Shown: positions 3,041 through 64,000 of the stretch, in pieces
How positions within the stretch are numbered: position 1 is the stretch's first letter
How the letters are laid out: the number at the start of each line of letters is the position of its first letter
NCBI GenBank assembly: GCA_964016885.1
Contig: OZ024740.1
Location: 368,528,001-368,592,000, forward strand
DNA: 64,000 nt
From: Eledone cirrhosa
Taxonomy: Eukaryota
Direction: 5' to 3'
Position numbers and translations under genes: made by a program
Notes under the pieces: generated by a model
What the model was told of the DNA's origin: nothing
Database searches by the model: none
Seen by the model: only the letters and a program-made list of their open reading frames with translations

Positions 3041-3116
3041 ACTCCTTGAGTCTCAGTCATTGATGTTAGTTAACTGGAAAGTTTGTTGGAATGAATATCA
3101 AGCCACTACTGCAGCC

Positions 3117-6528: not shown

Positions 6529-6896
6529 TTAAACACTCTTATCGAGGATTGGCGAATGTATGGTTACATAACCATATGTGGATTCACCGCCTCCGGTGGT
6601 TGCGTCACTCCACTTGGCTCTTGTGTGGCATTATCACCACGCTGTAGACGAACACATATAAACAAACAAACAAACAGGCAGAAAAAAACCCACAAATGAA
6701 TAAGCATTAGTTTCATTGTAATGTAGTGTTCGAATGTCTGACTTAGTTTTTCCCTTCCTTTCTCTGTCCGTCCGTTTGTTTCTCTCTTCATTCTTATTTT
6801 CTTTACGTTTTTTTTGTTTTTGTTGTTGTTGTTGGTTTGCTGCTTTGATTTTGATTTTTTTTTTTTTGGAGTCTATTTATATATTTTGATGCCTTC

Positions 6897-8177: not shown

Positions 8178-8179
<2 letters not shown>

Positions 8180-8231
<52 letters not shown>
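8180..8231. repeat. (TTA)n microsatellite between the two Dong-like copies
   Basis: Direct sequence. Confidence 0.95.
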
Positions 8232-8232
<1 letters not shown>

Positions 8233-11200: not shown

Positions 11201-12119
11201 CACAGGCTCGTTTGCCTGACATATTCCGCTCTCCATTTCCAACCTAATCTCCCTGCTCAGTTCCTCTAGTTCCAACTCGCTTATCCATCCATTAGTTCTT
11301 ATTACCCTAGCCTGCCCGGCCAATTTGTGTTCATCTAATTTAAATAGACCAACCTCGTTCCAGATGTTATGCATCCGTTTCCTATAGTCTTTTTTTTGCC
11401 TTGGGGTTACAGACAGGTAACATTCCCTGACAAATTTATTCAATTATTTCGTCCAGTTGGTTCTTGTCCCTTTCTTTCTTCTTCCTCCAACACAAGCAGT
11501 ATTTGGATGACTGTCAAGTCCCTGCTGCTGCACCAAGAAGCACTTGCTGGGTGAGAGTCTGTCACGTGACGTTCCAGTCTCCTGTTCACCGTTATTCGAA
11601 CTGTTTAGGTTCGACATTTAAAGACTCATATCGAGAATTGGTGAATCTATGGTTAGATAACCACCGGTGATTTCATCACCCCCAACGATTTCATCACCCC
11701 CGGCGATTTTAGCGTTGCACCATCACGCTGTAGACGAACATAAATAAATAAATAAATAAATAGATAAAAACTTAAAAAATAAACATAAGTTTCATTGTAA
11801 TTTTTGAATGTCTGACTTAGTTATTATTATTATTTTTTTTTACCTTTACGTGTTTCGTTTTTCATGGCCCGTAACATCGGTTACTAGTGTTGTTATTGTT
11901 GCTGGTGCTGTTTTTGATTTTAGCTACGAGGGAAGTAGGGGTGGTTGCGTTCAAAACTTTTGAAATTTGTTTTTTTTATGCATGTGTTTTTGTCTGTGTT
12001 CTTTTCTATAATTTGTTCGGCTTGTTGCTTATATTTGCCTTTCATCCTCCCGGGGTCGATAAAATAAAGAACCAGTAATGCACTGAGTAATTGCTGGCCT
12101 TGTGCCAAAAGTAGAAACA

Positions 12120-12150
<31 letters not shown>

Positions 12151-26869: not shown

Positions 26870-28850
26870 TATCATGGATGGCATCCAAACTTGTTACCTT
26901 TAGTATACCAGTTGGTCCTTCGAAAACAACATTTGTAATGTTTCCTCCGAGCATAAGTTACACGGACGGCGTCCTCCAGTGTAAGAATTAGCTCTGGACA
27001 GTAAGCTCCAAGTGAGATTGTATGTTATATTATTATCTTTGAGGTCCCAGATGTGGCCCGAGAGTGTAGTGGTGTGACGCCGGGCCGGGTTTCTGAAAGT
27101 ATGTCTGTGTAGTTAGAGCCGAGTCTTGAAGTCACAAGCGGTTAATCCTATATAAGCTTTGTTGGAGGTGTCCGTCCTCACGTTGCACTGGTAGATCACA
27201 TTACGATCTCGGCATCTATTGTTGAGGGGGAAAAGGGATCTATCAGGACAGTTGCACCTCCTGATCGGCTCTCCATTGCTGTCTCGGTTATTTCTTCCAT
27301 AGGGGTTGAGTTTTTTGTTGTTAGTGAGACGATGCTTTGTGCAAAGTTAGGTGTGGTGCTGTAGGTGCGTTTAATGGTGTTTTTATTGATTATATTGTGG
27401 TAGCGGTGTTGTAGTGGGAAGTGTTTTTTCGATGAGCCTAAAGAAGATTTTCCCGAAATGTGTTGTCACCTCGGCTTTGTGGGGAGGATTGAACCACGAT
27501 ATGTTGCGTGAGCGGCGGTGTCGCCTATGTGGTTCCGCTAATGGAAGCTGGATGATAGGATATTTCCTCCCGGAAGCAACTTCGCTTGAGGGCCTGGTTG
27601 TAATAAGGTACATGTTCATCGAATATCTGCTCATTAGCGGACACAATGAGATATGCGGAGGGAGATGTTTTTAACCAGCTTAGTGGTGATGTTTCTAGGG
27701 TGGTTCGACGGGCGGTGGATGTAACGCGAGTTGTCGTTTGTTTTCCTGTATGGGTAGTACATATCATTATCGAGGTTAAGTGTAACGTCCAGGTAGTTTA
27801 CTTGGGTTATGTAAGTCTGTGGGGTTATTTTAAATCCCCAGTCGCGCTAGAAGCTAATTAATTGTTTACGGACCCTGTCCGTACTACTGGGGTTGTACCC
27901 TTTGAGGGTAAGGAGCCTATCATCCCGGTACAATCCGCCGCCGAATGCAGGAAACCATTCGGTGAGTTTAAATAGTAAGAATAATCCTATAAGATCAGTG
28001 ACCTCATCTGAATCCGTCGCGCCATACTGACGTCGAAGGGGGAGTCAGGAGCTCTCTTTATCCATTTGGAGTTGTCGAAAAGTGGGACAGTCTTCCTGGC
28101 GTGGAGGATGATATTTCTTTCCTGGTCGGTGATGGGCGCGAGTGCTTCGGCGAAGTGCAAGGCGGCCGTAAGGAGCGGTAAGGTAATTGAAGCATAGTAA
28201 CTCTCTATGTCAAACTGGATGAATTTTGTGTCTCGTTTGTCCTCCATATTGTTGAACCAGAAGATAACTTCTGGGTGTTGACCCATAGGTTAAGTCTCGC
28301 GTTTTGGTTAACTTTTGGTATAACGCGGTCTAGGATTTTTTTACTGATTCTCTCTATGTCGGACTTCGTTGGGGATGGTGGGGATGGAGCAGTGGCCAGA
28401 AATTGCTGTTTGTTTATATATTTGTTTTTTTATATATTTATCTCCTCATCTTTATAATGGCTCGTTTTTTTACTCCCTTTCGATGTACCTACTTGTTCAA
28501 AACCCCACTCCCCTTCTCCAGTACACTTTTTTCGACCTTCTATACACTATCCTTAGAATCTGCTGTAGAGATTTCACTTTCAACGCTTGACTGGGATCCC
28601 CCACTCCCCCTTTGTTCTACCGGCAAGTTCAGCTACCCCCACCCTACCTTCCACTAAATGCCATGATAGAATCAACTCTCTTTACAACAAATGTGTGACC
28701 AATCCTCTTGACAATTACTATATTCCCATATATGCAATTACCCCCTGAGAAGTTCGGCTACTTATTTACCAGTCTAAAAATTCTTATTTAGTCCATAATT
28801 AGCTGTCGAAACGGCTTGAGCTCTGCCGTCGGGGTCATACTTGTCCCTAT
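26870..28850 (-). mobile_element. Decayed Hydra-clade-like PLE (RT-GIY-YIG) with inverted partial pLTR at 28410-28850 (copy C)
   Basis: Fragments FIQFDIESYYASITL, GGLYRDD, WFNPPH, CNCPDRS, KAYIGLT are homologous to ORF 44377-45798; the plus-strand end matches the pLTR ends of copies A/B and runs into (TA)n. Confidence 0.85.
28740..28835 (+). ncRNA. Type I hammerhead motif of the Hydra-like PLE family (core CTGAGAA in this copy)
   Basis: ACCCC-CTGAGAA-GTTCGGCTA...TAGCTGTC-GAAA-CGGC ttgagctct GCCG-TC-GGGGT. Confidence 0.7.
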
Positions 28851-32620: not shown

Positions 32621-33460
32621 ACTTACCATCTAACTTTCTTTGTTTGTAATCAATGATCTATTTGAATCTGTAGGAATTAGGGAGAGAGTAACGGCCTATG
32701 CGATATATCATGTGTATGCTGTTCGGTGTATGCGTGTACGTTTGAAATATTGTGCACTTAGTTATAATCATTTGTTCATATTTTTATGTCAAATTATTTA
32801 ATGATGGTGGTTAGTAATCTTATGTATATGTTAACTATTTGATTCACTTACATATTTAGGCTGTGTACGAGTATGTTTATATCAAATATTTTGCCTATAA
32901 TTGTAATTGTGTGTTTAAGTTATTCTGGTCAAGTTATTTAACTTATTCTGTTCAAGGCTATGTGTGTGAGCATTTTTACAATAAGTATTGTATGCTGAGT
33001 TTTAATCTGTTGTTGATTTGATAGCATTTAGCATATCTTTATTCATTCTAAGATTATCGATGTTCATATCGTTGGCTTCTATATTAACTGTTATAGCTTT
33101 GTTGATGTCTTTCCACTTTGTTGATGTCTTGAAGGAGGATGCATGTGTAACTGTATTTTCTCTTACGCATGTATGAAGGGTGTATTGGTACTACCGATTT
33201 AAAAAATATCTCTATTAAATGCGTTATATTGCGTATCCACAGAGGGACATACCACTGTCTTAAATGGGGCAGTATGTTGACGTGTAGAGGCTATTTTTCG
33301 GTAGGTATCGTAGTAGTGAAGGTTGAACTGTGTTAATTGTATATGTTGTCCCACCATACTGATGGGTCTGGATCACCGTGGTTATTAAGCACCGAATTTC
33401 AATGGTATACTCTATTTGGAAATGACACACATCATCTCAACCATGATTGAAGACCACAAT

Positions 33461-33647
33461 AATAATTGTTTCTACTTTTGGCAAAAGGCCAGCAATTATC
33501 CCAGTGCATTACTGGTACTTTATTTTATCGACCCAGTAAGGATGAAAGGCAAAGTTAACCTCAGCAGGATTTGTACCCAGAACGTAAAAGGCCGTAACTC
33601 TATACTGCAAAGCATGTCGTCCGACCTTCTACCGATACTGCCAATCC
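33461..33647 (-). mobile_element. tRNA-derived SINE, full length
   Basis: Near-identical to the 55966-56148 insertion; 5' GGATTGGCAGTATCGGTAGA, central gcctttcatcctt..gggtcgataaaataaagtaccag. Confidence 0.85.
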
Positions 33648-35320: not shown

Positions 35321-35644
35321 GAAGCCTCTGCCAAAAATAGGATTTAAAAGATGCGATAAAAGACTTTTTGCTTATTTCGAAGATTTTGTATTAAAGTAAT
35401 TTTATGATAATCTATATATTTTTGTTTACCATAAATGCTTCCCGCTATATTTACAGCCTTTTCAAAAAGATCTTTCGTTACAGGCTTTCGAAAAAAAAAA
35501 TATTTGCATATTATCTCACAAGGTTGATCATATGTGGGTTTGCTGAAATCAAAGGACGAAACTGGTTTTATCTTTGTCGCTTATGTCGAAAAGTATATAG
35601 TTCATTACATGGAACGTAATTCAGGCTTGTGGATATTATTTTTA

Positions 35645-35829
35645 ATTGGCAGCATCGGCAGAGCGTCAGACACCATGCTTTACAACATGAAGTCATGGCC
35701 CTTTACGTTCTCAGTTCAAATACCGCCGAGTTTAACTCTGCCTTTCATCCTTACGGGGTCGATGAAATAAAGTACCAGTAATGCTCTGAGATAATGGCTG
35801 GATATGTGGCAAAAGTAGAACCAATTATT
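35645..35829 (+). mobile_element. tRNA-derived SINE (diverged copy)
   Basis: attggcagcatcggcagag (A box), cagttcaaatac (B box), gcctttcatccttacggggtcgatgaaataaagtaccag, aaaagtagaa end. Confidence 0.8.
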
Positions 35830-36072
35830 TTTAATAAATATTAGTCTATGTGTAAAACATTGAGTTCGCTTTGACATTACTTAGGAAATTCTTTCCGTCC
35901 AAATCACTTTTACTTGAGTAACACATTCACAACAGTGGAAGGATGGGGAAACAGTAATTGGCCGAATTCGTCATCAGCGTTTCTCTATGAATTGGCTTCG
36001 GTGATATGTTTGTGGTATGTGAGTCCCTCATTTGTTGAGAGTTAACTTTTATACCGTATACCTATATATGTG

Positions 36073-41727: not shown

Positions 41728-41920
41728 TTAGGAAAAGGTATGACCCCGACGGCAGAGCTCAAGCCGTTTCGACGGCTATTTCTGGACTGAAATAGCCATT
41801 GAAACGGCTTGAGTTCTGTCGTCGGGGTCATACTTTTTACTATTACCCACTCTACTACCCTAATTATTGTATTCTATAGGGCGTTATAGTCCATCTGCTC
41901 CCTTACCACAACTCCTTCGT

Positions 41921-41921
<1 letters not shown>
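41728..41921. mobile_element. Collapsed palindromic mini-element made of two inverted ends of the Hydra-like PLE family
   Basis: gtatgaccccgacggcagagctcaagccgtttcgacggctatttc-tggact-gaaatagccattgaaacggcttgagttctgtcgtcggggtcatac plus an ~80-nt tail homologous to 43090-43170 and 52890-52960; flanked by (TA)n. Confidence 0.85.
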
Positions 41922-41954
<33 letters not shown>

Positions 41955-43045: not shown

Positions 43046-43091
<46 letters not shown>

Positions 43092-43181
43092 GAAGAAAAT
43101 GTGGTAAGGAACCAGGTGGACCATAACGCACCAAAGTACTCAATACTTGGGGTAGTAGAGTGGGTAATAGGAACCAGTAAG

Positions 43182-43275
43182 ACCCCGAGAGCTGAGCTCA
43201 AGCCGTTTCGACGGCTAATTCTGGACTAAATGAAAATTTATCCTGGTATTTAAATAGCCGATCTTCTCAAGGGGT
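43182..43275 (-). ncRNA. Type I hammerhead with U3-A8 variant core (left pLTR of copy A)
   Basis: Minus strand: ACCCC-TTGAGAA-GATCGGCTA...TAGCCGTC-GAAA-CGGC ttgagctca GCTC-TC-GGGGT. Confidence 0.75.
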
Positions 43276-44376
43276 AATTCCATATATGGTCAAAGTGATT
43301 GTCAAAAATCAGTAGTAATTCTGTGGTTGCAAATTAGTAGGGGAGATGGTGGCTAAACCTGCCAGTAGGAGAAAGAGGGGAGGGGGTGGAGTAGACCCAA
43401 TCAAGCGTTGGTAGTGCCAGCTACAGCTGGGCATGAGGTCAAAGAATATACAGGGGAGGGGGAGGGGGAGGAAGTCGGAACGGTAGGTAGAACAATGGGG
43501 TGTAGAAATATATAGGAAAGAAAAAATACTGAGAGTGAAGAAAAGCAAATAAAGAAAAAAGTAAAGTAAATTAAATTCTACGACCTAGGTCTCAGGCTAT
43601 TGTTAGGCTAGAATAAAATAAAGAAAGAAAGAAGTAAAGAAAAAAATAAATAAAGAAATAACGAAATAAGTAAAAGAACTAGGTGGGACGGAATAAGCAA
43701 GGACCCTTTTAAGAGGTATAAGTACGTAAATGATACGGTGACGGGTCAACAAAAGGGGCCAAAATACTAAAGAGACTACCACGAAATAAACAATAAAGGT
43801 TTCCATCCCGGGCCAGCAACGACCCAGTGCAGCAAAGTGAACTTGTACGAGATAATAATTCTGAGTCCCGAGAAAAATATATACTAATGCTAACTCTAAA
43901 AGATCTAAAACAAGCTACATGAAAGTTCGTACGAAATAAAGGTAGAATACGGAGAAATAAATTCAGAATCCACCCCGCCCAGAAGTAAAGCGAAGCAAGA
44001 AATACTGAAAGGAAAAAATAAGGCATAAGTGCCACTAAGAAATATAGAGGGCACAGAGAATAGTGGGAGCGGTCGGAAAAAGGGGGCAAGTATCCGGGGT
44101 CTAAGCCAACTGCTATAAAGGGCGGAGTCCGCCAAATCTATCATAGACTAGGGGACGGGGTGGTGGGGGTACTAAGGCTACATGGGGCCAAAGGGCAGCC
44201 TCGGGTGGGCGAGAAAAGACGCCGACAAAGGAGAAGAGCTGGGGTAGAAGGACTAAGGAGAGAGGGGGAAGGAAATAAAGGAAGCGATAAAAGAATACAA
44301 AGAAGATCTTAAGTCTTCCTTGGCAAGCAGGGGTTACCCATTGCAAAATCGGCAAGTGGGGTGTTATAGCCCTAGT

Positions 44377-45794
44377 CTACCCCCCCGGGTCATTATGGGG
44401 TTTGAGGGCGAGGTAAGTCCTACGCAATCTATGTTTACATGCAGTAACCAGTTGATCTTTCTTGTTTAGGAGTTGGTCCGTCGAAAACAGCATTTGTAAA
44501 GTTTCCTCCGAGCATAAATTGCACGGACGGCGTCCTCCCGTGTAAGAATTGGCTCTGGACAGTAATCTCCAAGTGAGATCATAGGTGATGTTGTTGTCCT
44601 TGAGGTCCCATATGTGGCCCGAAAGTGTAGTGGCGTGACGCCGGGCCGGGTTTCGGAAGGTATGTCTATGTTGGTATAGCCGGGTCTTGAAGTCACATGC
44701 GGTAAGTCCTATATAGGCTTTGTTGGAGGTATCCGTCCTCACGTTGCACTGGTAGATCACATTACGGTCTCTGCATCTATTGTCGAGTGGGCAAATAGAT
44801 CTATCCGGGCAGTTACACCCTCTGGTCGGTTCTCCACTGCTATTTAGTTTATTTCTGCCATCGGGGTTGAGTTTTTTGTTGTTAGAGGAGACGATGTTTT
44901 GTGCGAAGTTTGGTGTAGTGCTGTAAGATAGTTTGATGGTATTTTTGTTAATTATGTTGTGGTAGCGGTGTTGTAATGGGAAGTATTTTTCAATGAGCCT
45001 AAAGAATAGTTTCCCGATGGGAGTTGTCACCTCTGCGTTGTGGGGAGGATTGAACCATGTTACATTGCGTGAGCGGCGGTGTCTCCTGCTGGTTCCGCTA
45101 TTGGGAGCTGGACAGTAGGATATTTCCTCCCGGAAACCACTCCGCTTGAGGGCCTGGTTGTAATAAGGCGCATGTTCATCGAATATCCGCTCATTAGCTG
45201 ACAAACGGGATATGCGAAGGGAGATGTTTTTGACCAGGTTGTTTGTGATGTTCCTAGGATGGTTTGATCGGCGGTGGATGTAGTGCAGATTGTCATTAGG
45301 TTTCCTGTATGGGTAGTACAGGTCGTTTTCGAGGTCGAGGGTCACGTCCAGGAAGTTTACTCGGGTCAGGGACGTTTGTAGGGTTATTTTAAATCCCCAG
45401 TCGCGGAAGAATCTGATTAATTGTTTCCGGTCCCGATCTGTACTAATGGGGTTGTACCCTTTAAGGGTAAGGAGCCCATCATCACGGTACAATCCACCAC
45501 CGAATGCAGGAAACATATCAGTGAGTTTGGCTATTAGGAATAATCCTATAAGATCTGTGACCTCCGCCGAATCCGTGGCGCCCATGCTGACGTCGAAGGG
45601 TGAGTCGGGAGCTCTTTTTATCCATTTAGAGTCGTCAAAGAGTAAGACTGTCTTCCTGGCGTGGAGGATGATTTTTCTTTCCTGGTCGGTGATGGGCACA
45701 AGTGTTTCGGCGAAGTCCAAGGCGGCAGTAAGTAGCGGTAAGGTGATTGAAGCATAGTAGCTCTCTATGTCGAACTGTATGAATTTAGTTTCCC
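44377..45794 (-). CDS. PLE reverse transcriptase + CxCx5C linker + GIY-YIG endonuclease (N-terminally truncated, otherwise open)
   Basis: FIQFDIESYYASI, FDVSMGATDSAEV, GGLYRDDGLL, VNFLDVTLDL, YRKPN, SNHP, WFNPP, CNCPDRSICPLDNRC, NVIYQC..KAYIGLT..FKTRLYQH, CNLCSEE. Confidence 0.92.
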
Positions 45795-46921
45795 TCAAAC
45801 CCCATAATGACCCGGGAGGGTAGACTAGGGCTATAACACCCCACTTGCCGATTTTGCAATGGGTAACCCCTGCTTGCCAAGGAAGACTTAAGATCTTCTT
45901 TGTATTCTTTTATCGCTTCCTTTATTTCCTCCCCCCCCCTCTCTCCTTAGTCCTTCTACCCCAGCTCTTCTCCTTTGTCGGCGTCTTTTCTCGCCCACCC
46001 GAGGCTGCCCTTTGGCCCCATGTAGCCTTAGTACCCCCACCACCCCGTCCCCTAGTCTATGATAGATTTGGCGGACTCCGCCCTTTATAGCAGTTGGCTT
46101 AGACCCCGGATACTTGCCCCCTTTTTCCGACCGCTCCCACTATTCTCTGTGCCCTCTATATTTCTTAGTGGCACTTATGCCTTATTTTTTCCTTTCAGTA
46201 TTTCTTGCTTCGCTTTTCTTCTGGGCGGGGTGGATTCTGAATTTATTTCTCCGTATTCTACCTTTATTTCGTACGAACTTTCATGTAGCTTGTTTTAGAT
46301 CTTTTAGAGTTAGCATTAGTATATATTTTTCTCGGGACTCAGAATTATTATCTCGTACAAGTTCACTTTGCTGCACTGGGTCGTTGCTGGCCCGGGATGG
46401 AAACCTTTATTGTTTATTTCGTGGTAGTCTCTTTAGTATTTTGGCCCCTTTTGTTGACCCGTCACCGTATCATTTACGTACTTATACCTCTTAAAAGGGT
46501 CCTTGCTTATTCCGTCCCACCTAGTTCTTTTACTTATTTCGTTATTTCTTTATTTATTTTTTTCTTTACTTCTTTCTTTCTTTATTTTATTCTAGCCTAA
46601 CAATAGCCTGAGACCTAGGTCGTAGAATTTAATTTACTTTACTTTTTTCTTTATTTGCTTTTCTTCACTCTCAGTATTTTTTCTTTCCTATATATTTCTA
46701 CACCCCATTGTTCTACCTACGGTTCCGACTTCCTCCCCCTCCCCTGTATCTTCTTTGACCTCATGCCCAGCTGTAGCTGGCACTACCAACGCTTGATTGG
46801 GTCTACTCCACCCCCTCCCCTCTTTCTCCTACTGGTATGTTTAGCCACCATCTGCCCTACTAATTTGCAACCACAGAATTACTACTGATTTTTGACAATC
46901 ACTTTGACCATATATGGAATT

Positions 46922-47015
46922 ACCCCTTGAGAAGATCGGCTATTTAAATACCAGGATAAATTTTCATTTAGTCCAGAATTAGCCGTCGAAACGGCTTGAG
47001 ATCAGCTGTCAGGGT
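46922..47015 (+). ncRNA. Type I hammerhead with U3-A8 variant core (right pLTR of copy A)
   Basis: ACCCC-TTGAGAA-GATCGGCTA...TAGCCGTC-GAAA-CGGC ttgagatca GCTG-TC-AGGGT. Confidence 0.75.
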
Positions 47016-47027
47016 CTTACTGGTTCC

Positions 47028-47136
<109 letters not shown>

Positions 47137-47550
47137 TGTGAGAGAGAGATATTGATATATAGATAAATAGTCCTCTAGAAGTGATCTATATATATATATA
47201 TGTAAATACACACACACACTAACGTATCCGAGGGTATACATATCATGTATATCTATTGTGAGTCATTGAGTAATGTGTGTGCCTGCGTGACTGTGTGTGT
47301 GTTTTTAAGTATGTTTATATTTGAGGTATTCAATGGATAACAATTAAATATGTTGGCAGTTCTTCTATCACCTTTTACGAATGGTCTTCGCATAAACCTA
47401 AAATTAAGACAATATATGCGTATTTCTTTATGTATGTAAATGTGTATGTATATATGCATATATTTTGTGTGTATGTGTAACACACATATACACATACACA
47501 CACACATACACGCACACACATATATATTATATACATATAAATATATTATA

Positions 47551-47645
<95 letters not shown>

Positions 47646-48051
47646 TTACATATATACATTTATATATATGTCTTTATGTATGGTTGTGAGTTTGTATCCA
47701 TACACATGTTTGGTGAACGAATAAACTGGTAGTACATATTTATTATAATTGTTCGGATCCAACCCAATGACCTTATTTCAGAGATATACTTATACCCTTG
47801 ACATGACCTATTCCTCTATTTGAACTTATTTTCTATTCTTGAATGTAGCATAGTATATCAATATACATCGATTATTTTCATAAACATTACTTTAGACATT
47901 AGAAATGTGGCTAGATATATTTCCATACATACATATATACATACAATCATACATGCACGCATAGATACAGACATACAGACGTTAACAACTTAAATACTAT
48001 CATAAGGGAATGTTTTTTCTCTGGAGATTATACATATATATATACATTTAC

Positions 48052-48158
<107 letters not shown>

Positions 48159-48173
48159 ATATATATGTATATA

Positions 48174-48218
<45 letters not shown>

Positions 48219-48254
48219 TATGTATATATATTTATATATATATGAAAAAGTATG

Positions 48255-48350
48255 ACCCCGACGGCAGAGCTCAAGCCGTTTCGACGGCTATTTCTTGACT
48301 AAATTAGAATGTTTAGCCTGGTGAATAAATAGCCGAACTTTCAAGGGGGT
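48255..48350 (-). ncRNA. Hammerhead motif, left pLTR of copy B
   Basis: Minus strand: ACCCC(C)-TTGAAA-GTTCGGCTA...TAGCCGTC-GAAA-CGGC ttgagctct GCCG-TC-GGGGT; core is one nt short. Confidence 0.65.
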
Positions 48351-51300
48351 ACTTCCGTATATGGGAAGATTGTAGTTGTCAAGAGGATTGGTTAAAATTT
48401 GTTGTAAACACTAATCAGTCTATCAGTCTATCATTTGATGGGAGGTAGGGGTAGCGGAACTTGCCTGTAGAACAATAGGGGAATGAGTGGAGCGGTCGAG
48501 CGTTGAAAGTGATATGTATACAGTAGATTCTAAGGCTAGTGTATGAAGTGGAGGAGGGAGGTTATAGAATAAGTAAATTGAATGAGAGTAGGAGACAATA
48601 AAAGATAATAGAAAGAAATAAAAAAATATATAAAATTAGATAGGGAGAAATGAATAAAAATATCACAATTCTATTTTACAATTACAGGTTAATAAGTTGA
48701 AAATAGAAAAAACTTGTAGAAATTGAGTCGTACCAGAAGTGATACAGAATTAAAGGGGTTTAACATGTCTGCTATAAGTAGTTAGGAAAACGTATTCGGC
48801 CAATTCTATCATAACATTACAAGGGTGGGGGAACTGATGCTACAGAGGCCCGATGGGCTCTATCGGGGTAGACGAAAGGGAAAATCAGACAAGAAAGAAA
48901 ATAGGGGATGGAAAGAAACAGGAGGAAGAAGAAGACGAAGAGGAAAAGAAAAGATATACATCTACCTAAGTAAGCTGGGGTTTCCCCTAACTTATTCGGC
49001 AAGTAGGGGGTATCAGCCCTTGTTTACCCACCCGGGTCGTTATGTGGATTGAGGGCGAGGTAAGTCCTACGCAATGTGTGTTTGCATGCGGTTACTAGTT
49101 CCTCTTTCTTGTTTTGGAGTTGGTCTTTCGAAAACAGCATTTGTAATGTTTCCTCCGAGCATAAGTTACACGGACGAATTCCTCCCGTGTAAGAGTTAGC
49201 TTTGGACAGTAAGCTCCAAATGAGAATGTAGGTTATAATATTATCTTGGAAGTCGCAGATGTGGCCCTAAAGTGTAGTGGCAGGTCGCCGTACCAGGTTT
49301 CGGAAAGTAAGTCGGTGTTGGTAGAGCCGGGTCTTGAAGTCACACGCGGTTAATCCTAAGCTTTGTTGGAGCTGTCCGTCCTCAGGTTGCACTGGTAGAT
49401 CACGTTACGTTCTTGGCATTTGTTGTTGAGGGGGCACGTAGATCTATCAGGGCAGTTAGACCTCCAGGTCGGCTCTCCACTGATGTCTAGGATATTTCTT
49501 CCATGGGGGTTGAATTTTTTGTTGTTTGAGGAGACGACGTTTTGTGCGAAGTTAGGTGTGGTGCCGTAGGTTAGTTTGGTGGTGTTTTTGTTGATTCTGT
49601 TGTGGTAGCGGTGTTGTAGTGGGAAGTGTTTTTCGAAGAGTCTAAAGAAGATTTACCCGATAGGTGTTGTCACCTCGGCATTATGGGGAGGATTGAACCA
49701 CGTTACATTGCGTGAGCGGCGGTGTCGCCTGCTGGATCCGCTAAGGGAAGCTGGATAAAAGGATATTTCCTCCCGGAAGCCACTCCGCTTGATGCCCTGG
49801 TTGTAATGTGGCACGTGTTCGTCGAATATCTGCTCATTAGCGGACAAACGAGATATGCGGAGGTAGATGTGTTTAACCAGGTTATTGGTGATGTTTCTAG
49901 GATGGTTAGAGCGGCGGAGGATGTCCTGTAGGTTGTCGTTTGGTTTCCTGTATGCAGGAAACATTTTGGTTAGTTTAAATTGTAGGAATAATCCTATAAG
50001 ATCTGTGACCTCGGCCGAATCCGTTGCGTCCATACTGACGTCGAAGAGTGAGTCGGGAGCTCTCTTTATCCACTTAGAGTTGTCGAAAAGTAGGACTGTC
50101 TTCCTGGGGTCGGGCATGATATTTCTTTCCTGCTCAGTGATGGGTGTGAGTCTTTCGGCAAAGTCCAAGGCAGCGGTAAGGAGCGGTAAGGTAATAGATG
50201 CATAGAAACTCTCTATGTCAAACAGGATGAATTTTGTGTCTCGTTTGTATTCCATATTCCTGAACCATGAGATTACTTCCTGTGTGCTGGACCATAGGCT
50301 AAGTCTCACGTTCTGCTTAACTTTCGGTATAACTCGGTCTAGGATATTTTTACTGATTCTCCCTATGTCCGACTTCGTTGGGTTTATAAGCCTAATCGAT
50401 GTTTTGCGGTCGAAGTCGGATTTGTGGTCCTTCAGTGCAGTCGGCGACCGCGAGGCTGGACATAATTTGTTGTCCATCTCGATTTATGTCCTCGTTAATT
50501 GAATGGTTAGCCCTTTTTATAGGTGGAGTTTAGGCTGCTCCTGATCAGTGTGTGGTATATGTCAGGGTTGACGAAGTAGAGGTTTCCTATTTTGTCCGAA
50601 TGCACCATGATGTCGTTGGTGTTTTCATACTCTGTTATTTTGCTACGGAGTTGTTGTAGGAATCTGGTGTCTGGGTTTGAATTTAATGCTCTTGACCAGG
50701 TGGAAAAGGTCGTTCTCGAAGGGTGAGAGCATAGGGTTCGGAGGGGGAGATTTGTAGGTATTGAATCCGAATCTCTCCTTGGTGACGAAGCCCTTATTGT
50801 CGCGGTATCTATCGTAGAATAAAGTTCTCCATCTTAGTCTTTTCGCAGATAGATCCATTTTTAGCGTGAGCATCCGAAGGTAAAGATTTCTCGGTGGAAC
50901 TGGAATGTTCTTGGTGGAGAAGTGGATATAGTGTTTTCGCATTCCTACTATTTAAACTCAATGAAATGTTTCCAGCATTCGGCGGTGGATTGTACCAGGA
51001 TCATGGGCTCCTCACCCTCAACGGGTATAACCCCAGTAGTAAATACCGGGTCCGTAAACAACTAATCAACTTCTTCCGGGACTGGGAATTTAAAATAACC
51101 CTACAAACGACACTAACCTGAGTCAATTTCCTGGACGTTACACTTAACCACGAAAATGATCTGTACTACCCATACAGGAAACCAAACGACAACATGCACT
51201 ACATGCACCGCCACTCTAACCATCCTAGGAACATCACCAATAACCTGGTTAAAAACATCTCCCTCCGCATATCTCGTTTGTCCGCTAATGAGCAGATATT

Positions 51301-52781
51301 CGACGAACACGCACCTTATTACAACCAGGCCCTCAATCGGAGTGTCTTCCGGGAGGAAATATCCTTTTATCCAGCTTCCATTAGCAGATCCAGCAGGCGA
51401 CACCGCCGCTCACGCAACGTAACTTGGTTCAATCCTCCCCATAATACCGAGGTGGCAACACCTATCGGGAAATTCTTCTTTAGACTCCTCTAAAACACTT
51501 CCCCCTACAACACGGCTACCACAGCATAATCAACAAAAATACCATCAAACTCTCCTACAGCACCACACCAAACTTCACACAAAACATCGTCTCCTCAAAC
51601 AACTAAAAATTCAACCACTATGGAAGAAATAACCGAGACATCATTGAAGAGCCGACCAGGAGGTGTAACTGCTCTGATAGATCTACGTGCCCCCTCAACA
51701 ACAGATGTTTGAGAACGTAACGTGATCTACCAGTGCAACGTGAGGATGGACACTTCCAACAAAGCTTTTATAGCATTAACCGCGTGTGACTTCAAGACCC
51801 GGCTCTACCAACCCCGACATACTTTCCGAAGCCTGGCCGGCGACATGCCACTACACTTTCGGGCCACATCTGGGACCTCCAAGATAATAATATAACTTAT
51901 AAATCTCACTTGGAGCTTAGTGCCCAAAGCTAACTCTTACACGGGAGGACGTCGTCCGTGTAACTTATGGACGGAGGAAACATTACAACTGCTGTTTTCG
52001 AAGGACCAACTCCTAAACAAGAAAGAGGAACTGGTAACCGCATACAAACACAGATTGCATAGGACTTATCTCGCCCTCAAACCCCATAACGACCCGGGTT
52101 GGTACACAAGGGCTGATACCACCGTACTTGCCGAATAAATTAGGAGAAACCCCAGCTTACTTAGGTAGATGTATCTCTTTTCTTTTGTTTTCCTCTTTGT
52201 CTTCTTCTTCCCCCTGTTTCTTTCCACCCCCTATTTTCCTCCTCGTCTGCTTTTTCCCTTCGCCTAACCCGATGCAGCCCATCGGGCCTCTGTAGCATCA
52301 GTTCCCCCACCCCTGTAATGTTAAGATAGAATTGGCCGAATACGTTTTCCTAACTACTTATAGCAGATGTGTTAAACACCTTTAATTATGTATCACTTCT
52401 GGTACTACTCAATTTCTACAAGTGTTTTCTATTCTCTACTTATTAACCTGTAATTGTAAGATAGCATTGTGATATTTTTATTCATTTCAAACTATCTAAC
52501 TTGATATATTTTTTTATTCCTTTCTATTATATTTTATTGTCTCCTACTCGTATTCGATTTACCTATTCTATAACCTCCCTCCTCCACTTCATACACTAGC
52601 CTTAGAATATGCTGTATACTTATCACTTTCAACGCTTGACCGCTCTACTCACTCCCCTATTGTTCTACAGGCAGGTTCAGCCACCCCTACCTCCCACCAA
52701 ATGGCATGATAGACTGATTAGTGTTTACAACAAAATTTAACCAATCCTCTTGACATCTACAATCTTCCCATTTAAGGATGT

Positions 52782-52878
52782 ACCCCTTTGAAAAGTTCGG
52801 CTATTTATTCACCAGGCTAAACATTCTAATTTATTCCAGAAATAGAAGTCGAAACGGATTGAGCTCTGCCGTCGGGGT
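52782..52878 (+). ncRNA. Hammerhead motif with UUGAAAA core, right pLTR of copy B
   Basis: ACCCC(T)-TTGAAAA-GTTCGGCTA...TAGAAGTC-GAAA-CGGA ttgagctct GCCG-TC-GGGGT. Confidence 0.65.
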
Positions 52879-52957
52879 CATACCTTTTCCTATTTTCCAC
52901 TAAGTATTGAGTACTCTGGTGCGTTATGGTCCATCTCGTTCCATACCACAATTCCTT

Positions 52958-54082: not shown

Positions 54083-55399
54083 TTATGTGTCCAACTGTTT
54101 TTATGCGTGTAGCCTACGATCCTCCTCATGTTCTCTGTCTTTCAAATTCCATTACGTTTTACATGATGCTATTATGAAAGTAAATTGCATGAGCTGCCAT
54201 GCAATGAATATATAATATAGAAGCTAATGACTCACAGATAAGAAATGGTTGGCTTTGTTGCTTTTAATTTATATTTGACAATGTGGCTATGTCAGATATT
54301 GGTAGCATATATGTGAGTGGAAATCTTATATAGCATGAACTTATATTTTGTTAGTGCATGAGATCGCTAAAACATATATGCATGAAATACACACATGAAT
54401 AGCTATTAACAGAGAAAATCATAGCATGCAAAACAACACTTCTATACATGTAGATAACTGACATGTGCGCTCCTACTGTAACATACACCCAGACGCGCTT
54501 ACACATATACAGATACGGACACACACACACATATATATGTTTGTTATATTTGTGTTTTTACATGTATATATGCCTATATATATATATATATATATATATG
54601 GAAAGTTATATTTAAATTGTTGGGTTACAACTAGTAAATATTTATAACTGATATAAAAGCACTCAACAAGTATTTGGAGTATATTTACGATATTAAATAA
54701 ATGGAAACTATATTTATAAAACCATATTTATTTCATTATATATATTTCAGGGATATCATATTAACAATATGTTATGCCTTCCTCAGACAAAATACAATAT
54801 AGACAGTTTTATAGATAAATAGATTTGACATACCGTTCAACATCGACTTGTATTTGAAAAAGTTGATTTGGCAGTGAAAAATTGTAAACAGAAAGAAAGA
54901 AAGAGAGAAAGAAGGAAAGAAAGAAAAGAAAGAAGGAAAACGAAGAAAAAGAAGAAAAAGAAGAAATGTATGCAACAAAATAGAGAGATGGAAAGATAGA
55001 TAAAGAGAAGAACTTCATGTAAAGAAACAGAGAGAGATATATATAGAGAGAGGAAATAGATAGAGATAGATATATATAGAGAAAAGTAGGTAGTTGGAAC
55101 GTATCAATGATACATTTATTTATTTATTTATTTATTTAGCTCTAGTATTAATGTAAGGGAGATATATGTGGTTAGGAAAGAAAACAGCCGTTATATAGAG
55201 AGAAAAATGAAAAGTAACCAGACATAGGCGAGGCATAATTTAAAAACCCTATGTTTTAATGTAGAAGTATTAGTACGTATAAAAACCAGGCGCTATAATG
55301 TAAATATCAGTATTCTTGAATGAGACACGTATCCATAATGTGTGAAGAGTAATGATCTTATGTTTAGTTTTAAAAATTCATATGTTTATATGATAACTA

Positions 55400-56939
55400 G
55401 ACGAGATTCTAGAGATACGTTTTTGAACAGAGTTTACTATGACCAACTATGGACCAGAGCAGATAGAGATAGCAATTTTGACATTACTATGGGATCATCC
55501 GACTCAGCTCAGGTAACTGACCTTGTGGGCTTATTTTTAATCAATTCGCTACATAGGAAAATACCTGGTACTACCGGAGGTTTATATAGAGATGACATGC
55601 TTTTACTTATTGATAATAATAACTCTGAACTAAATAGAAAAAGAAAACAAATTACACAATTTTTTAATTACTTTAATCTTAAAATAGAAATTGAGAACAA
55701 CTATAGAATTGTCAATTTCCTAGATATAACATTAAATCTCAACACATGTCTTCACTATCCTTTTCACAAGTTGAATGAAAACTTAAACTATGTCAGCTTT
55801 AACTCTAACCACCCCAGATCTGTCAAAAACACTATAGTAAACTCTGTTCAAAAACGTATCTCTAGAATCTCGTCTAATAGAAAGATTTTCGACGAAAAAG
55901 CCCAGTACTACAATGAAGCGTTAGCTAGAGCAGGATATAGTGATAAGATTATGTACATAGATAATTGTTTCTACTTTTGGCACAAGGCCAGCAATTACCC
56001 AGTGTATTACTGGTATTTTATTTTATCGACCCCGTAAGGATGAAAGGCAAAGTTAACCTTGGCGGGATTTGAACTCAGAATGGCAAGGACCGTAACTCTA
56101 TGCGTCAAAGCATGGCGTCCGACCCTCTACCGATACTGCCAATCCCCCACATAGATAATGATAGACAAACTAAACAAAATAACAACTATTTTAATTACGG
56201 CAACAACCTTAACAAATATAATAGAAAGCATTACAATAATTCCAAAAGCCAAAAAAGAAATAGAACTAGGAACATAATTTGGTTTGCCCCCCCTTTCTCC
56301 CTAAACATTAAAACCCACATCGCTAAACTATTTTTTAAAGCTCTTGATAATCGCTTCCCTAGAACACATAGGTATCACTCAATTTTCAATAGACATACTA
56401 TAAAATTAACCTACTCATCCACCAAAAATTTAGCACAAAATATTAATAGAATAAATAATAGGAACTTAAAACCTAGTGATAATAGCATAAATAATATACA
56501 AGTTAACAAATGTAACTGTAGAGATAGATCTCAATGTCCGTTAAATAACAACTGCTTAGTTAAAAATATAATATACAATTGTAATGTTAAAACTGACTCT
56601 AATTCTTTTAACTACGTCGGTTCCACATCGACGGAATTTAAACTTCGCTATAATAACCACAAGAATTCTTTCACAGATCCAAGCAAAAAATCTTCAACAG
56701 CACTATCAGGCGTACTCTGGCAACTTATGCTAGATAACGTTAGATGTTCGACGGCTTGGAATATAGTCTCAAGAGGGATTCCTTTTAATTCATCCTCTGA
56801 GACATGTGACCTCTGCGCAGAGGAGATATTCTTTATACTAAAATCTAAAAATTCCCTTAATCTACGGACAAATTTATTCAGTTGCTGCAAACATAGATTA
56901 AACTCAACTTTTAAATATAAATTTAAATTTAAAATGTAG
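55400..56939 (+). pseudogene. PLE RT + CxCx5C + GIY-YIG ORF, 5'-truncated and split by a SINE
   Basis: FDITMGSSDSAQVTDLVG, GGLYRDDMLL, VNFLDITLNL, SNHP | WFAPPFS, CNCRDRSQCPLNNNC, NIIYNC..YVGST..FKLRYNNH, CDLCAEE; frames rejoin (KIMYIDN|DRQTK) after SINE removal. Confidence 0.9.
55966..56148 (-). mobile_element. Full-length tRNA-derived SINE with 11-bp TSD
   Basis: TSD ACATAGATAAT at 55955-55965 and 56149-56159; minus strand GGGGGATTGGCAGTATCGG (A box), GAGTTCAAATCC (B box). Confidence 0.92.
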
Positions 56940-58256
56940 TATATTTAGTTTATTTTATAATTATTTGGGAAACTAGCCGATAAATCTTTCGATTTCTTCT
57001 TTTTATTCTTCTTTTTCTTTTTATTTTTATTTAAACATTCTTCATGAAAAATTAAACTACCCTAAAAGTTGATGCTCCAAATATTTCGAATAAACGTTAC
57101 TCTAGATAAACTTCTATATTAAATATAAGAACACATGTAGACCAAATGGGCATCCTAAACTTTTTGAAATGATTTTTGCTAGACGCGATTTGATAAATCA
57201 TTTTTAGCTTTATCTGTTTTCGACTCTGATGCTTATAATGAACTTGGCAATATATTGTCAATTAATTTTGAAGGGTTGATCTTTGTGGTTTATTTTTATT
57301 ATTGTAATATTTTCTAATATTTTTATTTTTAATATGTAATATTTTTTTGTAATATTTTTATTTTTTAGTTTTCTACTTTATTATTATTTATTATTATTAT
57401 CATTATTATTTTTTGTTTTTGTTTCTGATATTTTTAATTAATATATTGAAATCTGTTCTCTATTTCTGCTTGATAGATAATCATGTAGAGTAAAGACAAG
57501 AATAGTATTGTTAAAATTAATATAGACTCTATATATATGTGTATATATATACACATATATGTATACTTAAATTTTTATAGCACAATGAGAATGTTCTCCG
57601 TGTGAAATAGGGGTTTGCAGAATTGATCACGTAAATTCACATCGATGTTTGTAGTTATCATATAAACATATGAATTTTTAAAACTAAACATAAGATCATT
57701 ACTCTTCACACATTATGGATACGTGTCTCATTCAAGAATACTGATATTTACATTATAGCGCCTGGTTTTTATACGTACTAATACTTCTACATTAAAACAT
57801 AGGGTTTTTAAATTATGCCTCGCCTATGTCTGGTTACTTTTCATTTTTCTCTATATATAACGGCTGTTTTCTTTCCTAACCACATATATCTCCCTTACAT
57901 TAATACTAGAGCTAAATAAATAAATAAATAAATAAATGTATCATTGATACGTTCCAACTACCTACTTTTCTCTATATATATCTATCTCTATCTATTTCCT
58001 CTCTCTATATATATCTCTCTCTGTTTCTTTACATGAAGTTCTTCTCTTTATCTATCTTTCCATCTCTCTATTTTGTTGCATACATTTCTTCTTTTTCTTC
58101 TTTTTCTTCGTTTTCCTTCTTTCTTTTCTTTCTTTCCTTCTTTCTCTCTTTCTTTCTTTCTGTTTACAATTTTTCACTGCCAAATCAACTTTTTCAAATA
58201 CAAGTCGATGTTGAACGGTATGTCAAATCTATTTATCTATAAAACTGTCTATATTG

Positions 58257-58346
58257 TATTTTGTCTGAGGAAGGCATAACATATTGTTAATATGATATCC
58301 CTGAAATATATATAATGAAATAAATATGGTTTTATAAATATAGTTT
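58257..58346 (+). ncRNA. Hammerhead-like motif of family D (also on the minus strand at ~54705-54794 and ~53422-53511)
   Basis: CTGAGGA(58265)-AGG CATA..TATG..CCT-GAAA-TATATATAA...TTATAAATA-TA; stem I pairing weak. Confidence 0.5.
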
Positions 58347-58420
58347 CCATTTATTTAATATCGTATATATATATATATATACGCCTATCTACAAATGTAT
58401 ATATGTATATATGCCTATCT

Positions 58421-58489
<69 letters not shown>

Positions 58490-61535: not shown

Positions 61536-62362
61536 AACTGGTTTTGTACGTGATATTTATACATATATTTGAGTACATTTTATACTGCACAATGGAAGAA
61601 TGATGTAGGATGCCATTATTGGCATATTCAGCATATTAGATCTGCCCTTATCTCGCCATAGCTTTCAGCAACCAGCTAAAGGCCTTTAGGGTAAATATAA
61701 ATCATTTGTTGTAATCGATTCTTTCAACGTCCAATTACCAATTTGAATTAACATCAATTCCCTGAAGATAATTTAATGAATTCTAGAGTAAACACATATC
61801 TTTGCAGGTGGCATTTCCTGAACTTTTCTGAATTCGAAATATAATGCAATAGATTAATCTGTCTATAATATATACAATTTTAATGAGATATCTTTGATCA
61901 CTATATCTCCCATGAAATAGATAGTGCCTGGTGTGCGAATTTGCTACATGTTTTAATCATATGTTTCACTACTGGTACTAATATACAATACATGTACTGT
62001 ATATTTGCATGTAAATCGCAAATGATATGCTGTCATATTCACATGGAATTACTAGAGAAATATGGTACTCGTTTAAATGGTGGTGAAGAATATATAGTTT
62101 GCATCTTTTCAGATTGAACAAAGGGATAATGAAAATCATTTCCCCCTAAATATGTTATCATTTTAAATCCAGCTGGAATAAAATTAGCTATTTACGTCTC
62201 ATGAACTGATAATTGAAATAACATTGATAAGCATGGATGGAATTATTCTGCTAGTCCTCTCTGAAAATATTCGTATCAAAATGTTTAATTAGACAGTATT
62301 TTAACGTGCTCTTTTCTATTTAAAGTTAATCGGAAAACATTCATTATGAAAATAAAGCGTTC

Positions 62363-62545
62363 ATTGGCAATATTGGTAGAGGGTCATGCATGCTTTCCAG
62401 CGTAGTTACGTCACGTTACGATCTGATTTCAAACTCCGCCGAGGTTAACTTTGCCTTTCATCCTTACGGGGTCGATAAAATAAAGTACCAGTAATGTACT
62501 GGGTAATTGCTTGCCTTGTGCCAAAAGTAGAAACAATTATAATTA
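62363..62545 (+). mobile_element. tRNA-derived SINE
   Basis: attggcaatattggtagagggtc...gaggttaactttgcctttcatccttacggggtcgataaaataaagtaccag...gccttgtgccaaaagtagaaacaattat; same family as 55966-56148. Confidence 0.85.
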
Positions 62546-64000
62546 TATAATTAGTAAGTGTGCCCCATTCAGAATATATTCATAAATCAATATGCATATA
62601 TGTTATCTACACACACATGCATTCACAAAAACACACAAAGAATGTAATTTATATCAACGGAAGCTAAGAAATGTCTATGCTCAATGAAATACAAACAGGT
62701 ATGATATTTCAAAATATGTCATTTTCTCTTTGGAAATCATATGTCTGTATTCACCGATAATGAATTAAAGAATGCCAAGTGTTAAAATTGATTTTAAACA
62801 TATAAAACATCTAAATACTTAACTGTAAATAATTATACATGTACACATATGATCAGTCGTGAAATTTAATAGAAATTTGTCGTTTTTACATATTGATATA
62901 TCAGATTTCTTTTATCTGTAGTAGTGGTGGTGGGAGGGATGAATTAGTATGTACGGGGGCTTTGGTTACATTTCTGCTGTACTGGTGCTGAGAATATCCA
63001 GTTTGTTTATTATTTGAATATTTCTATGCAGGAATTTTACCCAAGAGATATATTGACAATGCGACGTATTTGTTTATGCATATTGATAACATATACGGTC
63101 TCTATTTTGAAACTGCTTGCTTTCGTTTAATCAATTATATTCCTCAAAGCAAGTCTAAGTGATTAATCAGTTTATTTGATAATGTAATTTCTACAACTAT
63201 ATCAAAATAGAAATATAGATACTGCTGATATTTAATTGAAAGAAAAATATCTTCTTGGGAATGGATAGATAGATCTTCAATAATTACAGAGATTTCAAAA
63301 ACTTAATTAGAAAACGAAAACATGTTACGATACACTAAAAAGTGTTTTGTATTTATCTTTCATTTTTCAAAAAAACCGTTATACATATATGTTTCTTAAT
63401 GTCACACGTCATTAGGCAAATGTCAACTTTATCATTAAAGTGGAATATAAAATATCGCTGAATATAAAATATCGCTGAAGGCAAATTCATGCATATACAT
63501 TCTCTTACGTTCACATACACTTACACGCTGGTACAGAAATGCATATACAATGATATTTAGATTGATAAAAACAAACATACACATACATGCACACATACAA
63601 ATATACATACAAACACACACACGTGTGAATTTATGAAAATACTAGGAAATATTATAATTTTTATGTGAAGTCATAATGCAGCTTATGAGAAAGGTTTAAT
63701 GAGCTACTATAATTAATTCTTATTTTATTCCGGATTTAAAATGTTATATTTTTATAGAAAGGTGGACGTAATAGTAATTTTTAATTAGTGTGTATATGTG
63801 AATGATGGTTTTGTAGGGTGTACATATCGCCCGTCACTCTTGTTATTACATAATTCGTAACATAGTAGAGGTAATGGAAATTGTTTCAGGATTTATATAA
63901 TTTAAATTACAAGAATTAACATAAGATAATGTGTCTCACTTACGTTGAGAAAATATTTATTAATTTAATTATTTAAGAAAGTGAAGATATATAATGATTG

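Follow-up and report, generated by a model that had tools for sequence, protein, structure and literature searches.

The hammerhead ribozyme of PLEs has been proposed to serve in circle-making (PMC4209133), and its role has also been called unclear or parasitic (PMC8557442). In one other PLE, a protein assisted cleavage, and insertion in vitro could proceed without cleavage (PMC11167929). PLE promoters reside in the pLTR (PMC2377424). Hydra-clade PLE hammerheads (Craig et al. 2021, PMC8557442, File S2) have in common with those described here the protein clade, the 3' position and the (TA)n targets, together with an inverted 5'-truncated arm plus tail, type I topology and a short helix III. 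The Hydra rows of File S2 are all C3-G8 with a compact helix II, whereas here A8 is fixed, position 3 is drifting, helix II with its loop occupies 54-56 nt, helix III of 5-6 bp closes a loop of 7-9 nt, and a unit measures 3.5 kb.

The copies considered here lie in a 64,000-nt window of Eledone cirrhosa DNA (contig OZ024740.1), the window being the whole stretch that was analysed. It contains the following insertions, coding remnants and hammerhead copies:

26910-28850, no single strand: remnant of a subfamily-B insertion, a minus-strand ORF fragment (28373-26910) plus a plus-strand 3' end
28740-28835, plus strand: hammerhead copy, core CTGAGAA, C3·A8, the subfamily B state
41729-41926, no single strand: two half-hammerheads forming a mini-palindrome between (TA)n flanks; the tail is on the right arm and missing from the left
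43084-47030, no single strand: whole subfamily-A1 insertion, two arms head-to-head, (TA)n on both sides
43084-43166, minus strand: PLE tail (in the sense of PMC11167929), the stretch between two putative reverse-transcription start sites
43275-43182, minus strand: hammerhead copy, core UUGAGAA at 43270-43264, C17 at 43187, G16.2 mutated
44377-45822, minus strand: 5'-truncated Hydra-clade PLE ORF with YRDDG RT motif, CxCX5C linker, GIY-YIG-type endonuclease, CxxC and CxH
46922-47015, plus strand: hammerhead copy, core UUGAGAA at 46927-46933, GAAA at 46988-46991, C17 at 47010
48240-52957, no single strand: subfamily-C insertion, minus arm 50942-48240 plus plus arm 50941-52957
48350-48255, minus strand: subfamily-C hammerhead copy, core (C)TTGAAA, one nt short for the subfamily
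52782-52878, plus strand: subfamily-C hammerhead copy, core (T)TTGAAAA, extra nt before U3

By its protein motifs and (TA)n targets, the host element is a Hydra-clade PLE. A single 717-aa ORF encodes RT (YRDDG) followed by a C-terminal GIY-YIG endonuclease (VIYQ...YIG); a Pfam search of the PLE ORF gave zero matches, and the motifs DKT, RWR, CNCPDRSIC, CNLC and CKH in the ORF of locus L274 fit the published description of the Hydra clade. Insertions are flanked by (TA)n, as in that clade, but its canonical hammerhead at the 3' end is represented here by a hammerhead with a non-canonical core, located 1.1 kb 3' of the ORF and 274 nt ahead of the next start codon. The minus arm of the A1 insertion (45792-43084) comprises the 3' part of the ORF, the 3' UTR, the hammerhead and an 87-nt tail, and its plus arm (45792-47030) is without the tail; in the subfamily-C insertion the tail is on the plus arm, and the minus arm is without it and carries an internal deletion. 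Tandem arrays of the element occur elsewhere in the genome, with hammerheads 3.5 kb apart. Trees were built with FastTree, with database homologues at 39-45% identity as the outgroup; subfamily ages were taken from branch lengths, and within-subfamily divergences are biased low by best-hit sampling.

The motif at the PLE 3' end (pLTR) is a type I hammerhead fold as judged from its sequence, with three helices around the core and helix I open. All five copies reported in a sequence-only reading of this DNA were recovered in place as type I hammerhead motifs, and its assignment of a hammerhead to a PLE stands; within the window the copies are the outer ends of inverted pairs rather than tandem pLTRs. 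The site at 41729-41926 was a sixth, absent from that reading. None of the five window copies (0/5) is intact: the 46922 copy has a helix I mismatch adjoining the cut site, G16.2 is broken in the 43182 copy, the 28740 copy has C3·A8, the 48255 copy has a core that is indeed one nt short in comparison with its own subfamily, and helices II and III are broken in the 52782 copy. Scoring 17 helix pairs in 14 copies found 96.6% of cells paired, as compared with 15-68% in slid controls. U4-G5-A6-N7, A9, G12-A13-A14, A15.1-U16.1 and H17 are fixed in six subfamilies, with N7 taking all four bases. Outside positions 3, 7 and 8, 41 of the 43 helix and core positions are identical in the six subfamily majority sequences and the 2 changes keep G·U pairs; in the adjacent UTR 72/184 columns are identical across the same six. 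Four-fold-site divergence between the oldest and youngest subfamilies is 0.34, and within the family 0/17 helix pairs were altered on both sides.

An enlarged stem II had been noted, and this is borne out by a length of helix II and loop outside the 10-25 nt found in 47 relatives, whose hammerheads differ in helix sequence and were compared by motif scan rather than alignment. The ~40 nt that stem II was said to enclose corresponds to a CGGCTA-to-TAGCCG insert of 37-39 nt in the window copies. An inner hairpin varying by subfamily was also described; its 5' side does vary, its 3' side is constant, and the helix is weak (-0.9 to -5.0 kcal/mol). The helix I internal loop varies among subfamilies as well. 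Against shuffled sequences, four of the five window copies showed no advantage in folding (z -0.41 to -1.35), the remaining one standing at -2.55. The hammerhead junction, with a probability of 0.002-0.51, is rivalled by an alternative fold. An Rfam scan of the window at E<=1 placed 0/71 matches in hammerhead families, in agreement with the expectation that standard CUGANGA searches would miss this family.

Helix III exceeds that of the minimal (dimer-dependent) PLE hammerheads, in which it is absent or 1-2 bp. The sequence-only reading had pictured an active U3-A8 ribozyme family with transcripts possibly processed through kissing or dimerisation of a palindromic loop III, a model that now appears very unlikely. 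The loop III sequence UUGAGCUC is the majority in 6/6 subfamilies, the in silico self-duplex of helix III reaches -26.3 kcal/mol versus -4.9 per hairpin, and a palindrome in loop 3 is already known from PLEs (PMC4209133); however, a dimer is unnecessary because the 5-6 bp helix III can form within one molecule, and the hammerheads of arrays are 3.5 kb apart. The palindrome GAGCTC claimed for loop III is present in 4/5 window copies but is GAGATC in the 46922 copy, and GAGATC variants recur. Loop III would also lie at about +28 to +35 of the transcription start proposed below, so its constancy could stem from constraint at the DNA level. Finally, U3-A8 is not fixed, as the genomic counts indicate.

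A pattern combining the core and helix II with A8 had 8,068 genomic matches, versus 9 for a reversed control, a number far beyond chance. G8 matches numbered 88, and C3-G8 was found in only 5/30 inspected G8 loci; the family consensus does not restore CUGANGA, and such a restoration had been named as counting against the variant core. C3 is present in 2,048 of the 8,068 A8 matches, and C3·A8 (CTGAGAA) in 40/44 sampled copies of subfamily B, so that the CTGAGAA core of the 28740 copy was read correctly but is not the exception to the consensus it was taken for. In the older subfamily D, U3·G8 is found in 32/40 copies. With about a quarter of A8 matches being C3·A8 and a U3·G8 subfamily besides, the U3-A8 pair is not a fixed family trait, and the claim that it is a conserved compensatory one is not upheld. 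A Watson-Crick 3-8 pair (U-A) is found in A1, A2 and C, C·A in B and early I, and U·G in D. At this pair the lineage seems to have gone from U·G to U-A, on to C·A and back to U-A, which would mean that the family went on multiplying during the mismatched states. The youngest, intact subfamily is back to a paired U3-A8 core, with UUGAGAA in 24/24 intact A1 loci inspected. Among the relatives, which are metagenome contigs (best 80 of 569, giving 77 loci, 54 with the motif), the 3-8 pair is Watson-Crick in 47/47 distinct hammerheads (44 C-G, 2 U-A, 1 G-C), and the canonical hammerheads sit in or near element ends. A-to-I editing might repair C3·A8. In contigs that are not on record as RNA, T>C at position 3 made up about a quarter of the depth, and A>G at position 8 never exceeded 5%.

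Hammerheads with C3·A8 or U3·G8 are expected to cut slowly. Cutting may no longer be needed at all, the fold being kept for protein binding or as a promoter and positions 3 and 8 drifting with catalysis unselected; this we regard as possible but rather unlikely. Such an account would accommodate the C3·A8 and U3·G8 states against 0/47 mismatches in relatives, the lack of effect of catalytic mutants on insertion in vitro (PMC11167929), and the finding that B-type 3' ends give the same mini-insertions as others (4/30 whole). It sits poorly with the invariance of U4-G5-A6, A9, G10.1-C11.1, GAAA and GUC across six subfamilies, with the return of the lineage to U-A, and with the gain by A1 of an A-U pair at 10.2-11.2.

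Genome-wide, 66,110 matches to the 3' half of the motif were counted, among which are 13,138 tiny head-to-head palindromes. In a consecutive series of 91 such matches, 66 break off 9-19 nt ahead of GUCGAAA and 6 span the whole motif. The longer arm measures 14-16 nt (within 3 nt) in 65/104 tiny pairs, which corresponds to one spot in loop II, and exactly one tail is present in 53/53 pairs. The left arm of the mini-palindrome at 41729-41926 terminates exactly at the loop II A. An untemplated G precedes this A in 12/16 cases versus 18/57 elsewhere (p=0.003), a signal that is weaker with partner-arm bases retained (18/37 vs 48/169, p=0.02); arms stopping one base past the A (30 pairs) are as common as those at it (25). 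One sequencing run of a second organism also contained a portion of the element; two of its contigs stop in loop II, a number too small to weigh. The proposal that impaired cores give fewer mini-insertions was not supported, whole ends being 4/30 for B-type and 6/91 overall; since B-type ends make mini-insertions too, their production is independent of the core pair. An untemplated G at full-length L1 insertions reflects the mRNA cap (PMC11702581). Given the common end point and this mark of a copied cap, loop II likely contains the transcription start; the half-hammerhead mini-insertions, of which there are tens of thousands, would thereby be accounted for. The corresponding features of the 46922 copy are:

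46968-46974, plus strand: constant 3' part of loop II (TT-A-GTCC), with the A at 46970 as the putative transcription start
46941-46948, plus strand: TATA-like TATTTAAA, which begins 29 nt before the putative start and is weak evidence in AT-rich DNA

A match resembling the DPE consensus was absent at +28 to +32 of the putative start. A roadblock would be an unlikely source of the pile-up in loop II; in that case the polymerase would stall either at the inner hairpin or where protein of the element occupies the hammerhead beside the reverse-transcription start sites. The end point does fall on the 3' strand of that hairpin, the same stop is reached from both reverse-transcription start sites, and protein binding near the hammerhead is known in another PLE (PMC11167929). 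However, the inner hairpin is the weakest helix and differs among subfamilies with the same stop, 39/40 ORF-complete copies get past the same structure on a second encounter, and an untemplated G would not be expected from a stall.

Copies with a complete ORF end at the loop II A in 0/40 cases and within 15 nt of it in 1/40, these 40 being partly non-independent as some are in common arrays. This is contrary to a simple capped mRNA, and a second template class is therefore assumed, the missing loop II end pointing to circular or read-through templates. Tail-bearing arms start at or beside the cut site in 5/108 cases, a weak pile-up.

On the reading we favour, and consider slightly more probable than its negation, the hammerhead would be a slow or protein-assisted self-cleaving RNA with an enlarged loop II that doubles as core promoter. 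Transcription would initiate 41 nt ahead of the cut site, at the A of (T/C)T-A-GTCC, and RNAs would consequently begin with only the 3' hammerhead half. Reverse transcription from two internal start sites, ~20 and ~107 nt 3' of the cut site, would, on each target strand, run off the capped end, giving two short cDNAs that join head-to-head within (TA)n DNA. Long and tandem copies would come from templates without the capped end, most simply unit-length circles arising after the predicted hammerhead cleavage, or alternatively read-through RNAs. Fast cleavage would be unnecessary for amplification, because the U·G and C·A subfamilies multiplied.

A more elaborate model, which we think unlikely, envisages a one-and-a-half-hammerhead mRNA that starts inside the ribozyme and uses it as a switch between productive and abortive transposition. 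The downstream 5' half may then pair up with either its own 3' half or the capped one at the RNA start, making each into a full hammerhead; the in silico cofold is -27.7 kcal/mol. Two cuts would decap the RNA and free an exact unit that circularises as the template for long or tandem copies, and uncut capped RNA would yield only mini-palindromes. If true, the U·G, U-A, C·A, U-A walk would record how a catalytic pair crossed both mismatched intermediates in live elements. With four natural 3-8 states in one datable lineage and intact young copies, the family makes the role of the PLE hammerhead testable. Its tens of thousands of insertions form a genomic record that would map an RNA 5' end inside the ribozyme and separate short from long templates. 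The origin of an abundant MITE-like palindromic repeat would also be explained; annotation would not tie this repeat to a retrotransposon.

A U3-A8 core alone would not matter much, and the novelty claimed for it does not hold, as it was previously published (PMC4209133, PMC3088659). Schistosoma PLE hammerheads with U3-A8 gave about 1,300 matches (PMC4209133), and the Cercyon PLEs of Schistosoma mansoni (Cervera and De la Pena 2014, PMC4209133) likewise have terminal repeats with U3-A8 that CUGANGA descriptors miss. The same source records motif pairs on opposite strands, 100-700 bp apart. The minimal Cercyon hammerheads are without helix III and thought to require dimers, unlike the helix III-bearing ones here, and amplified C3·A8 subfamilies and half-hammerhead palindromes that stop in loop II are both absent from the excerpts of PMC4209133. 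Natural core variants (Perreault et al. 2011, PMC3088659) also include U3-A8 covariation and insertions before position 3, and a natural U3·G8 case is attributed to that work in PMC7151607. The variants in the excerpts of PMC3088659 are scattered examples without C3·A8 among them, whereas here they would be successive states of one amplifying lineage. PAc, a Poseidon element of Anolis (Frangieh et al. 2024, PMC11167929), similarly has two internal start sites after the hammerhead that define a tail, priming on both target strands, and AT-rich targets. Its hammerhead has a canonical core overlapping the start codon, unlike here, and the loop II start (putative) and mini-palindrome class (observed) of the present family are not reported for PAc in those excerpts. 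Penelope of Drosophila virilis (Schostak et al. 2008, PMC2377424) also has an initiator-bearing promoter inside the pLTR. Its start precedes an intron ending in helix I (PMC2377424, PMC4209133), so that its RNA contains the whole hammerhead, whereas here the putative start splits it.

On balance we somewhat favor a reading in which this Penelope-like element (PLE) carries a 3'-end hammerhead whose loop II doubles as promoter, with long copies drawn from other templates. The PLE frame lies in the window as follows:

44377-45822 (-), PLE ORF, identified by homology and Hydra-clade motifs

This ORF bears DKT, an RWK-like motif, a CxCX5C linker, a C-terminal GIY-YIG, CxxC and CxH, which PMC8557442 gives as marks of the Hydra clade. 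Of 8,000 scored candidates, 2,019 are homologous to it, the best at 39-45% identity. As in the Hydra clade, insertions target (TA)n, and every insertion in the window consists of two inverted arms, one of which carries a tail (the stretch between two inferred reverse-transcription start sites). An internal deletion in the subfamily-C minus arm (49952-49954) takes out the YRDDG region of RT. Intact 717-aa copies in the E. cirrhosa genome occur in tandem arrays with a ~3.5 kb unit. Thirty loci were taken from 63 matches; 24 belonged to this family, and all 24 have a UUGAGAA core 274 nt 5' of the start codon. The remaining six represent two other Hydra-like families whose cores are canonical (C3-G8); in one of these families helix II is 38 nt long, so that a large helix II is not peculiar to the present family. 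These six loci (L270-L273, L276, L277) carry 719- and 714-aa frames, the two families being 70% identical mutually and 42% identical to the present one. Another canonical hammerhead family lies just past A1 elements on the strand opposite to the ORF (L290:5098, L294:4977, L295:5072). Two arrays of the youngest subfamily, with at least four intact units each (contig C1:91474419-91487154 and C1:437200456-437213157), are candidate source loci.

Elsewhere in the window, a non-LTR retroelement is present in two copies (2994-6751 and 8179-11825, 84% identical), with an ORF at 3731-5869 (-) matching Pfam RVT_1 (8.9e-19). Inverted repeats of ~845 bp (54559-55399 and 57652-58485, 94% identical) enclose open frames at 55339-56037 and 56073-56939, neither with a Pfam match. 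A ~190-bp dispersed repeat of SINE-like size occurs in five copies, 78-93% alike:

12034-12141, ~190-bp repeat
33458-33647, ~190-bp repeat
35642-35843, ~190-bp repeat
55961-56145, ~190-bp repeat
62360-62556, ~190-bp repeat

The five hammerheads claimed by the sequence-only reading were recovered at 28740-28835 (+), 43182-43275 (-), 46922-47015 (+), 48255-48350 (-) and 52782-52878 (+), and read as type I. Each consists of helix I (ACCCC/GGGGU), core, G10.1-C11.1, a 6-bp helix around 37-39 nt, GAAA, a 5-6-bp helix III and GUC, and each window copy carries a defect. None of the 71 Rfam matches in the window is a hammerhead. Across 17 pairs in 14 real copies, 96.6% of cells are paired, versus 15-68% in slid controls, with no two-sided changes. 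Folding was better than shuffles (z < -2) in 1/5 window copies. A GCCGU-CGAA-ACGGC hairpin is the predicted rival fold, the hammerhead junction having a predicted probability of 0.51 in A1 and 0.002-0.12 in the other five subfamilies. As modeled, helix III could form a self-duplex, and two half-hammerheads could complete one another.

Exact genomic matches to the core and helix II pattern numbered 8,068 with A8 (control 9), 2,048 of them with C3, and 88 with G8 (control 10); 30 sorted G8 loci comprised 23 U3·G8, five C3-G8 and two others. Of the 246 copies sampled, 196 were sorted on the basis of non-core positions, nine of them staying unassigned; the samples are best matches rather than genome proportions.

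Core pair 3-8 by subfamily
A1, U-A in 26/29 copies
A2, U-A in 12/12 copies
I, C·A in 9/20 and U-A in 6/20 copies
B, C·A in 40/44 copies
C, U-A in 41/42 copies; one additional base precedes U3
D, U·G in 32/40 copies

In trees of 35 copies that retain 580 nt or more of the ORF, the subfamilies branch off stepwise in the order D, C, B, I, A2, A1, and terminal branches shorten from 0.04-0.11 in D to 0.001-0.006 in A1. A protein tree with eight outgroups places the root, with weak support, at or within D; together these suggest that the core pair passed through U·G, U-A, C·A and U-A in that order. Outside positions 3, 7 and 8, 41/43 core and helix positions are the same across subfamilies, compared with 72/184 UTR columns and a divergence of 0.34 at 142 four-fold sites. 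Deletions in L222 and L366, two genomic copies, remove GAAA and the helix III region; that in L366 lies between two GCCGTC direct repeats, which suggests template slippage.

A 16-nt pattern from the hammerhead 3' half gave 66,110 matches (control 0), roughly 8 times the 5'-half matches, the patterns being unequal in length. Among 91 3'-half matches inspected, nearly all within the first 11.5 Mb of C1, the hammerhead is whole in six and breaks off 9-19 nt upstream of GUCGAAA in 66. At 41729-41926 in the window, two 3' halves are joined head-to-head; genome-wide, exact pairs in this arrangement (spacer 6-36 nt) number 13,138, and tail matches 44,457. Exactly one tail was present in 53/53 pairs examined, as would be expected if priming on the two target strands used the two internal start sites. 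Only 5/108 tail-bearing arms start at or beside the cut site. B-type 3' ends, whole in 4/30, produce the same mini-insertions, which are thus independent of the core pair. The longer arm, measured in 104 distinct pairs, was 14 nt in 30, 15 nt in 25, 16 nt in 10 and 17-18 nt in 11; an arm of 15 nt ends on the A in (T/C)T-A-GTCC (window 46970). The surrounding sequence resembles an initiator, and TATTTAAA, presumably TATA-like, starts 29 nt upstream of this A. The first untemplated base was G in 12/16 arms ending at the loop II A versus 18/57 elsewhere (p=0.003), and over all 266 truncated arms in 18/37 versus 48/169 (p=0.02). An extra G is described in L1 as a sign of a copied cap (PMC11702581). 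We infer a transcription start inside loop II, which would explain the enlarged stem, the insert length of 37-39 nt, the constancy of the insert's 3' side opposite a variable supposed partner, and the very large class of half-hammerhead palindromes.

A general roadblock at loop II is rejected by the ORF-complete A1 copies that pass it, and the weak inner hairpin makes an unconvincing block. Among 48 ORF-complete A1 copies, 40 run past the upstream cut site (some in common arrays). None of these 40 has its end at the cut site or at the loop II A; a single copy stops 14 nt short of that A. This also shows that a simple capped linear mRNA is not the source of long cDNAs; circles formed after cleavage, as proposed in PMC4209133, or read-through RNAs would fit as their templates. 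For another PLE, PMC11167929 describes internally initiated reverse transcription, a tail, and cleavage that is protein-assisted and dispensable.

The scan of relatives, which permitted mismatches, yielded 47 distinct motifs from 54/77 related loci (C-G 44, U-A 2, G-C 1), with helix II and loop of 10-25 nt. Independent U3-A8 (two) and G3-C8 (one) cores occur in distant Hydra-like relatives (L161:1769, L164:2400, L100:285). The C3-G8 pair is treated in PMC3884650, and related literature includes PMC6765202, PMC2377424 and a 2026 preprint on retrozymes. U3-A8, the core pair singled out by the earlier reading, is not new: it was already known from PMC4209133 (PLE hammerheads) and PMC3088659 (natural hammerheads), and PMC7151607 quotes a natural U3·G8 variant. 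Further core variants may be listed elsewhere. Within the literature searched, the apparent crossing of both mismatched states by a catalytic pair while its subfamilies amplified would be new, as would the putative transcription start in loop II. The family's 3'-half motif is absent from the supplement of PMC8557442. In that supplement's File S2, the Hydra rows seen are all C3-G8, whereas the present family has U-A, C·A or U·G according to subfamily.
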